Shown: piece after piece, positions 5,244 to 5,994 of the stretch
Position numbering within the stretch: position 1 is the stretch's first letter
Layout: every line of letters begins with the position of its first letter
DNA from: Escherichia coli 042
Lineage (GTDB): Bacteria; Pseudomonadota; Gammaproteobacteria; Enterobacterales; Enterobacteriaceae
Assembly: GCF_000027125.1 (NCBI RefSeq)
Contig: NC_017626.1
Strand: one strand, 5' to 3'
Length of the DNA: 64,000 bases
Made by a program: the position numbers and the translations under genes
The notes under the pieces: model-generated
What the model was told of the DNA's origin: nothing
Database searches by the model: none
The model's input: the letters and a program-made list of their open reading frames with translations, nothing else

Positions 5244-5781
5244 TGTCTTTTCCTCAGTTAATGTCTACATGGCTATTTTTAATGTTATTATTGTTTGTCA
5301 CTATAAAAAATCGCTCATTTGAGACAATTGCTGGCATTAACAGCTTCATATGCTATACATGGTACTTTTAATTAATTTAGCACAAGAATGTTAAATTTAA
5401 TAAGCAAAAGGTTATTTCACTGTATGATAAAAACCACCCGTTATAATTTATTCGTGAGAATCGTTTTTTGAGTGTTAGAAATTTATATCTAAATAGCGTT
5501 GATTAATGACCAAAGCCAGACTCCTGTAATGCTCACAAGACTCTTCTGCATTCGACGGCGGTTCTAGTCAGTAGTAGATGTTTAAGGCGTGGCAGAGACA
5601 TTTCATCCTTACTCTAAGGCATTGTTCTACATACATTGGTCGTGGTACTCACTCAGCATAAGTGAGCGAAAAGAGAATAGTTCAGTGATTTGAGTAATTA
5701 ACCTGATTAAATGAAGGGGTATAATAAATGATAATACTCTGTCTTTATCGTTAATTACTTAATTCCACATGTAAGCAATTT

Positions 5782-5808
5782 GCCCGCTTGGCATAGCGGG
5801 CATTTTTT
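5782..5808 (+). terminator. Intrinsic terminator-like hairpin on the plus strand (gcccgc-ttggcata-gcgggc then ATTTTTT)
   Basis: 6-bp GC stem followed by a T6 run. Lies between the split hypothetical gene and tRNA-Ile, both on the minus strand. Confidence 0.4.
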
Positions 5809-5994
5809 CCAGGTACTTTTGAATGAGTACTGATGGATAAATACATTGCAGTGGCGTGCCACGTACCAAAACACCAGCCCTCATTCGAAACCACCCACCA
5901 CACTTCTTCCTTGAAATGGCGTTAGTCGTGAAATATAGACCGCCATCGAGTACCCCTTGTACCCTTAACTCTTCCTGATACGTGAATGATGATT

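Follow-up and report, generated by a model that had tools for sequence, protein, structure and literature searches.

What does a terminator-shaped hairpin terminate when both genes beside it are read from the opposite strand? The question is raised by the ypjC–ileY intergenic region of Escherichia coli 042 (contig NC_017626.1), which we analyzed within a stretch of 64,000 nucleotides (nt), hereafter the window, and in which a first-pass annotation had placed a plus-strand hairpin with a following T-run, read as an orphan terminator and as the possible end of a small RNA (sRNA) or micro-protein transcript. Hairpin, T-tract and the minus-strand orientation of both flanking genes are all where that annotation put them. 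The hairpin stands at one end of a 68-nt core that is nearly free of variation in E. coli and in E. albertii, and the element is real, constrained and probably an RNA gene of one strand or the other. It is without annotation even in MG1655 and absent from Rfam, and is probably an undescribed sRNA gene, a candidate put forward from sequence comparison. Our preferred reading, to which we assign a probability of roughly one half, is that the hairpin is the intrinsic terminator of an unannotated plus-strand RNA gene of ~67 nt (5742-5808), convergent with ileY and lying 190 base pairs (bp) downstream. The features needed at the outset are as follows.

5244-5994: ypjC–ileY intergenic region of the E. 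coli chromosome
3789-5243, minus strand: ypjCB (DUF5507/DUF5508), frameshifted
5995-6070, minus strand: ileY, tRNA-Ile2(CAU), convergent with the predicted RNA and the constant neighbor in both species
5781-5802, plus strand: GC-rich hairpin of 8 bp (6 G-C) with a 6-nt loop, from the terminator scan and folding
5803-5808, plus strand: T6 tract, which gives the hairpin the form of an intrinsic terminator; without variation in all copies examined
5743-5810, strand unassigned: near-invariant 68-nt core, CTTTATCG to GCGGGCATTTTTTCC, from genome counts and alignments
5798: G5798A (K-12 2785565), the sole common polymorphism; G in the window, A in K-12 and about two thirds of carriers

A terminator-shaped hairpin in an unannotated spacer

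The hairpin stem pairs TGCCCGCT at 5781-5788 with AGCGGGCA at 5795-5802 around the loop TGGCAT (5789-5794) and has a local folding energy of -15.9 kcal/mol (z = -3.2). A G+C-rich stem-loop followed by at least 5-6 T, the usual description of an intrinsic terminator, is thus present on the plus strand. By themselves the hairpin, T-tract and promoter-like sites are not beyond chance: the terminator scan gave two overlapping calls where shuffled sequences gave 0.7 ± 0.8, and promoter-like sites numbered 8 against 8.8 ± 3.0 in shuffles. It is conservation that lifts the finding above chance.

The ypjC–ileY spacer was found in 3,113 of 5,426 complete E. coli genomes and, among the matches listed, was without an annotated feature in all but one genome; the curated MG1655 record likewise has nothing annotated between ypjC and ileY. 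K-12 coordinates used below equal window coordinates plus 2,779,767. A literature search for the block, for ileY together with sRNA, for b2651 and for sequence strings found nothing relevant.

A near-invariant core within E. coli

The core is carried by 3,087 of the 5,426 complete genomes (57%), and the element is therefore accessory; it is also present in E. albertii. Exact matches account for 3,068 of the 3,087 carriers (99.4%), with the G allele at 5798 in 1,041 genomes and the A allele in 2,027. Several haplotype backgrounds carry the polymorphism, and O157:H7 includes both alleles. Strains with the G allele include O145 RM8988 and APEC 789.

Nine complete genomes of 90-99.9% identity were aligned, and the alignment grew to 75 copies (46 haplotypes) when metagenome contigs were added. 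Those contigs were gathered by the 22-mer at 5857-5878, which forces invariance at its own bases; the same pattern was obtained from the nine genomes found by BLAST and from ten contigs of a viral collection gathered by a different word. Positions 5743-5797 show zero variation in the 75 copies. Pairwise haplotype diversity is 4-8% over most of the spacer and falls to 0.002, 0.017 and 0.001 in the 50-nt bins spanning 5737-5886. Two flanking 68-mers, scored as controls on the same genomes as the core, are far more dispersed: the right-flank control matched 1,827, 788, 3 and 476 genomes at ≥99, 95-99, 90-95 and 80-90% identity, respectively, and the left-flank control 1,211, 1,724 and 142 genomes at ≥99, 95-99 and 90-95%. 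The first-pass annotation had proposed conservation of the hairpin in related genomes as a check; in 99.4% of E. coli carriers the core varies by no more than G5798A, and E. albertii shows one loop change in the hairpin.

Two observations concern changes within the hairpin. In strain 27992 (L094, 4001-5300), an IS3-family insertion at the start of the GC hairpin splits the core, the only such disruption among the listed genomes. A study of evolved gallium resistance lists a low-frequency G→A at K-12 2785563 (window 5796), another base of the stem.

Comparison with E. albertii

The corresponding region of E. albertii was found by a protein search with a conceptual open reading frame (ORF) from the block. 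There the element again adjoins ileY and a ygaQ homologue, and its other neighbor is ykgM-ykgO, not ypjC. Because the element is next to ileY in both species while the other side differs, it belongs with ileY rather than with ypjC. The description of the terminator as an orphan is accordingly only half right. Homology between the two species begins at ~5673 and continues unbroken through the element to ileY, with identity distributed as follows.

5655-5697: 49%
5698-5741: 70%
5742-5810: 97% for the window or K-12 sequence; one difference in 69, a loop base, against the E. coli consensus
5811-5885: 84%
5886-5994: 58-61%, with 37 gap columns
ileY tRNA: 93-95%

The sole consensus difference in the core is loop base 5789, and the same hairpin is predicted in E. 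albertii with that single change. If the 69 nt diverged at the mean rate of the flanks, no more than one change would be expected with a binomial probability of 3e-11; even when the best-conserved flank sets the rate, the value is 8e-5. Across 13 E. albertii loci, which comprise seven distinct sequences, the core is without variation. Because this short frozen segment has deeply diverged flanks in two species, a recent transfer or sweep cannot account for it, and the block is, as judged from these comparisons, under strong purifying selection at the nucleotide level. It stands out further against its surroundings: YgaQ homologues occur only in E. coli and E. albertii and are just 60% identical in amino acids between them, so the ygaQ neighborhood evolves unusually fast.

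In E. albertii, ~390 nt separate the element from the zinc-regulated ykgM-ykgO operon upstream of it. The element has the orientation of a plus-strand terminator (L079, 5083-5620; L095-L104), and our scan predicted no other terminator between the operon and the hairpin. In one locus (L099), a deletion removes ykgO through the base after the GATAAT box described below and leaves the core in place.

Promoter-like elements and the predicted plus-strand RNA

What would such a terminator end? Upstream of the core we noted the following.

5730-5735, plus strand: GATAAT, a conserved -10-like box, invariant in the 75 E. coli copies and E. albertii
5698-5725, plus strand: TTAACC-16-TATAAT, promoter-like, 10 of 12 matches, specific to some strains
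5742-5808, plus strand: predicted small RNA of ~67 nt, comprising a 39-nt A/U-rich 5' part and the terminator
5690-5702 and 5750-5762: arms of a long A/T-rich inverted repeat, seen in folding, that encloses the promoter-like region

The first-pass annotation had pointed to TATAAT sequences, and these are present at 5720-5725 and 5442-5447; the copy at 5720-5725 is not conserved, being replaced by ATACAA in E. albertii and by CATGAT in 14 of the 75 E. coli copies, and the conserved -10 sequence is instead GATAAT, which lies inside the conserved stretch ATGATAAT (5728-5735). Immediately after it, 5736-5740 differs between the species at four of five positions; invariance resumes at 5741/5742, where the predicted +1 falls (~5742), and runs to 2 nt past the T-tract. 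Promoter matches are 9-10 of 12 in both species, a level reached at chance density, and the E. albertii scan independently called ATTACA-18-GATAAT together with the same terminator. The start of the predicted RNA was placed from the -10 box and the onset of invariance, and its end from the T-tract. The transcript would therefore be ~67 nt, not the plus-strand span of ~500 bp first suggested.

The plus-strand fold of 5690-5808 reaches -35.2 kcal/mol (z = -4.5); the inverted repeat at 5690-5762 has conserved arms around an interior that varies in E. albertii, with two basal pairs changing through G·U on the plus strand.

We retain a plus-strand sRNA as the best single explanation because an invariant, perfect T6 directly after an 8-bp GC stem would hardly arise by chance within a minus-strand RNA, and nor would the coincidence of both edges of conservation with a promoter-to-terminator unit. 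In this scheme, a weak sigma-70 promoter would start transcription near 5742 from the -10 box at 5730-5735; the window's strain also has TTAACC-16-TATAAT. The 39-nt 5' part, invariant and mostly without structure, would work through base-pairing or protein binding, and the GC hairpin with its U6 would end the RNA and form a 3' module typical of chaperone-bound enterobacterial sRNAs. Polymerases reading through, which would be commoner with the weakened A allele of K-12, would be stopped by Rho at ~5857-5905 before they run antisense into ileY. The locus lies in H-NS-bound, A/T-rich DNA and would be nearly silent in laboratory K-12. Of this scheme, the observations cover the sequence features, how strongly they are conserved, their linkage to ileY and the low, Rho-terminated plus-strand transcription in K-12; a discrete RNA, its start site, its binding by a chaperone and any target are inferred.

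Published K-12 data and the possibility of a termination barrier

Is the plus strand transcribed here at all? Adams et al. 2021 (PMC7815308) report an orphan plus-strand Rho-termination region at K-12 2785647 (window 5880), 72 nt past the T-tract, with a Rho score of 3.9 (p = 1.6e-6); without bicyclomycin there were 55 reads upstream and 19 downstream, and with bicyclomycin 114 and 154. The point lies within a tract whose composition is of interest.

5857-5905, plus strand: C-rich, G-poor tract (22 C and 4 G in 49 nt), containing the Rho-region point 5880

This tract is likely the Rho loading and termination zone for plus-strand read-through. Plus-strand transcription, whose lack the first-pass annotation had named as telling against its reading, is therefore present in K-12, weak and Rho-terminated at window 5880, and that objection falls away. 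A binding site for the RpoD holoenzyme in genomic systematic evolution of ligands by exponential enrichment (SELEX) and H-NS binding are both reported in the ypjC–ileY spacer (Shimada et al. 2014; PMC3946193). No start-site entry for the spacer was found, by coordinates or gene names, in the Cappable-seq and SMRT-Cappable-seq supplements.

These data also fit an arrangement without any dedicated RNA, in which the hairpin and the C-rich tract together form a plus-strand termination barrier, intrinsic and Rho-dependent, that shields ileY. Such a barrier would stop spurious transcription from the H-NS-silenced DNA upstream of ypjC, or read-through from ykgMO in E. albertii, from running antisense to ileY, and conservation would reflect insulation or a function of the DNA itself. 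The weak, Rho-terminated transcription in K-12, promoter-like sites at chance density, the lack of any chaperone or end-mapping signal found in K-12 data, and the position of the hairpin as the first predicted terminator downstream of E. albertii ykgM-ykgO, in the same orientation, are consistent with it. A barrier, however, needs only a stem and a T-tract: it leaves unexplained the 39 invariant unpaired bases upstream, seen across 3,087 genomes and two species, and also why the stem itself carries the sole tolerated change, a weakening one. We consider this explanation unlikely.

Signals on the minus strand and points against a plus-strand RNA

Several observations weigh against the plus-strand RNA. 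The -35 element is poor, and promoter-like matches in DNA so rich in A/T are at chance level; GATAA at 5730-5734 can pair with TTATC at 5744-5748, so ATGATAAT could be a stem arm rather than part of a promoter. Over 2785400-2785699 of K-12, the tRNA end is the only 3' end that Term-seq lists on either strand, a null to be read with the facts that K-12 carries the weakened A allele and that expression of the locus is very low. The spacer also has no entry, whether as ypjC, ileY or a coordinate, in the RIL-seq-based sRNA prediction or the Hfq CLASH supplements, all of which concern K-12, and so shows no Hfq or ProQ association there. Among the 135 start regions in the window, no target was found for the 39-nt 5' part, whose best duplex (-24.3 kcal/mol) is matched by shuffled controls (-23.0 ± 2.1).

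The remaining points come from the pattern of substitutions. A at 5798 leaves a C·A mismatch midway along the plus-strand stem and weakens its fold from -15.9 to -9.7 kcal/mol, whereas on the minus strand the same change is a G·U pair; and this weakening allele is the majority, in 2,027 of 3,087 carrier genomes. A second structure lies beside the core.

5812-5895, minus strand: imperfect palindrome of 31 pairs, its firm part at 5821-5886, from pairing across copies

Read on the minus strand, the palindrome pairs in 99.5% of the alignment cells, and G·U preserves each of the ten variable pairs; read on the plus strand, 81.7% pair and the same ten are C·A. The fold of 5742-5888 is correspondingly -48.5 kcal/mol (z = -4.65) on the minus strand and -35.1 kcal/mol (z = -1.5) on the plus strand.

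One E. albertii locus (L104) carries four clustered changes at window-equivalent 5834-5839 that turn the palindrome's internal loop UUUC/CAUC into the perfect pairs UUUC/GAAA. From their sequence, these changes look like a templated quasi-palindrome mutation.

Could the product then be a minus-strand RNA? It would be structured and ~150-200 nt long (~5890 to 5742 or 5690), a tRNA 3' trailer produced when transcription from the strong ileY promoter reads through, and the apparent terminator would be its second hairpin, preceded by an A-rich linker. We keep this as a rival because the wobble asymmetry, in which the ten palindrome pairs and G5798A are compatible with the minus strand only (11 to 0), is too strong to ignore. 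The stronger minus-strand fold argues in the same direction, as does interspecies homology that is unbroken from ileY to the element and ends at ~5673, just beyond the A/T-rich inverted repeat; the transversions of the one E. albertii strain, too, fall in the palindrome's internal loop. Transcription-linked mutation bias could, however, mimic part of the G·U asymmetry, and a trailer leaves unexplained both the perfect plus-strand T6 abutting the stem and the invariance that stops exactly there. Between tRNA and element there is no conserved minus-strand promoter, and the 105-nt spacer proximal to the tRNA is the least conserved part (58-61% identity, 37 gap columns). Neither a minus-strand terminator nor a mapped 3' end was found. 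In K-12, moreover, a minus-strand Rho-dependent termination region at 2785734 (window 5967) cuts ileY read-through 28 nt after the tRNA, the read count being 154 over the 800 nt upstream and 30 over the 800 nt downstream (PMC7815308). With Rho acting so close to its 3' end, ileY seems to be terminated by Rho and not by an intrinsic terminator. On balance we regard a minus-strand trailer as possible but doubtful.

Both sets of signals would be accommodated by a two-strand module at ileY, in which a minus-strand trailer RNA and a convergent plus-strand antisense sRNA share the GC hairpin. The 68 nt would then be frozen because their overlap is constrained on both strands, and the module could tune the output of ileY, the AUA-decoding tRNA-Ile2, or act as a sponge or antisense switch. 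We judge this arrangement improbable.

Coding potential of the block

The first-pass annotation had listed two tiny plus-strand frames, MKGYNK (5711-5731) and MIILCLYR (5728-5754). Both exist, and both lie in or across the variable promoter region, which led us to reject a micro-protein; of the sRNA or micro-protein transcript proposed, the sRNA part is kept, since the terminator sits in a constrained promoter-to-terminator block. On the minus strand, three frames of 41, 39 and 50 codons are open across the block, the first of which is sometimes annotated.

5759-5884, minus strand: 41-codon ORF overlapping the block, open in both species, rejected as a protein gene

A minus-strand small protein, either the 41-residue product of 5884-5759 or a 39-residue product with a CPLC motif (5874-5755), would account for frames that stay open in both species and for the annotation calls, and within E. 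coli four of six polymorphisms in the 41-codon frame are silent (worked by hand). Between species the pattern is the reverse: 11 amino-acid-changing substitutions against 3 silent in the 41-codon frame (11 of 14), and 12 against 1 in the 39-codon frame (12 of 13), in keeping with the ~80-90% of substitutions that change amino acids in the longer minus-strand ORFs. The 50-codon frame is interrupted by a stop in E. albertii. ORFs of the block have no Pfam match, and no homologues were found beyond E. coli and E. albertii. All interspecies changes in the 41-codon frame fall outside the nucleotide-invariant core, and because silent sites within the invariant part are likewise free of change, it is the nucleotide sequence that is constrained. 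A small protein is highly improbable.

Known families, outgroups and mobile elements

Does the preferred plus-strand sRNA belong to a described family? Rfam 15 scans of 3000-9000, and of 5670-5995 with laxer filters, returned only the tRNA above a gathering threshold. The best other match was RprA, at 22.5 bits against a threshold of 70, and all matches over 5670-5995 are well under their thresholds and driven by the generic hairpin.

Species-representative genomes, searched with the exact 20-mer CCACATGTAAGCAATTTGCC and with YgaQ as a protein anchor, gave no outgroup beyond E. albertii. The 20-mer hit one contig, from a metagenome-assembled genome labelled Planococcaceae, that is 93.6% identical to the E. 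coli spacer and presumably contamination; the YgaQ anchor gave no confirmed locus.

No phage homologue of the element was found, and its "plasmid" matches are three mislabelled E. coli chromosomes of 4.8-4.9 Mb; the ten viral-collection contigs that carry it all have E. coli-type host flanks. We considered and rejected the core as an attachment site: islands and a P2/186-like prophage join inside the tRNA or 46 nt after it, not in the core, and the sole insertion in the hairpin is a single IS3. A type I toxin-antitoxin locus is not supported, the ORFs being neither hydrophobic nor conserved.

ileY itself serves as a hot spot of integration. In one E. albertii strain and some ten contigs, homology breaks off 46 nt into the 3' half of the tRNA (window 5995-6040; L011, L016, L035, L040-L043, L050, L063, L077 and L081). 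In E. albertii L081, the only such locus with called genes that was inspected, an integrase lies beside the partial tRNA copy. In strain 20AR0354, a P2/186-like prophage starts 46 nt downstream of ileY, and the conserved element is absent.

Comparison with known systems

The predicted plus-strand RNA resembles intergenic, Hfq-binding sRNA genes of E. coli and Salmonella, such as RprA, MicA and RybB, in its length (~70 nt), its own -10 box, its conserved single-stranded 5' part and its 3' GC hairpin and U6 after A/U-rich sequence, and in the sharp limitation of conservation to the transcribed part. It differs from them in having neither an Rfam match nor an Hfq-linked signal in the supplements searched, in being predicted from sequence, in its restriction to 57% of E. 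coli and to E. albertii, and in the common allele that weakens the terminator.

The Isr RNAs of Salmonella and the O-island sRNAs of enterohaemorrhagic E. coli are island-encoded, H-NS-silenced and located next to tRNA integration sites. Like them, the element is accessory, lies in A/T-rich, H-NS-bound DNA beside an integration-hot-spot tRNA and is silent in standard culture. Unlike them, it keeps its place beside the tRNA when the island side is exchanged (E. coli has ypjC there and E. albertii has ykgMO), is without phage or plasmid relatives and is not obviously the cargo of a mobile element.

3'ETS-leuZ is a tRNA 3' external transcribed spacer RNA that lies directly between a tRNA and its operon's own terminator. 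The element shares with it a position downstream of a tRNA gene and, if read on the minus strand, an origin in a trailer; here, in contrast, the element is separated from the tRNA by 105-190 nt of poorly conserved spacer and by a Rho-dependent stop, and the minus strand lacks a terminator. Convergent sense and antisense RNAs that overlap at their 3' ends are produced by type I toxin-antitoxin loci such as txpA/RatA. The present locus is similar in that evidence for constraint is found on both strands and is strongest at the putative overlap, and in having a small-ORF start codon within a long hairpin, but it has no hydrophobic or conserved toxin peptide, and its two-RNA arrangement is a prediction from sequence.

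Neighboring genes and other features

ypjCB is split in the window by a frameshift in a T9 run at 4889-4897; elsewhere it is intact, has internal stops, or is present as separate ypjB and ypjC genes, as in K-12. The two thirds of the spacer nearest ypjC (5244-5690) differ by 4-8% between haplotypes, with several indels, which is unusually diverse for E. coli; this part has no E. albertii counterpart and is recorded as H-NS-bound in K-12. On the other side, ARAGORN labels ileY as Met from its CAT anticodon, and beyond it lie ygaQ, glaH and lhgO. ygaQ (alpha-amylase family, 6630-8882) is intact here, encoding 750 amino acids, but many other strains, K-12 among them, have it as a pseudogene.

A second terminator-shaped hairpin, AAGGGGTTACGTGAAAGCGTAGCCCCTTTTTCTTT, is present on the plus strand at 3579-3651 between a recombinase remnant and ypjCB. 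It is probably the one that the first-pass annotation had counted as its first orphan terminator, and it has only a weak, sub-threshold Rfam match (BjrC68, E = 0.05).

Significance

The search for small RNAs in E. coli K-12 has gone on for over twenty years. The block described here is present in MG1655 and is conserved at least as well as the adjoining tRNA, yet it is unannotated, belongs to no Rfam family and, as far as we found, is unmentioned in the literature. If it is an RNA gene, it would be a new regulator linked to the rare AUA-decoding tRNA-Ile2 and to a hot spot of phage and island integration. Such a regulator would be silent in laboratory K-12, in which H-NS binds the locus and the common allele weakens the terminator. 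Should the two-strand arrangement hold, the locus would be an unusual tRNA-linked antisense module that has been overlooked even in K-12.

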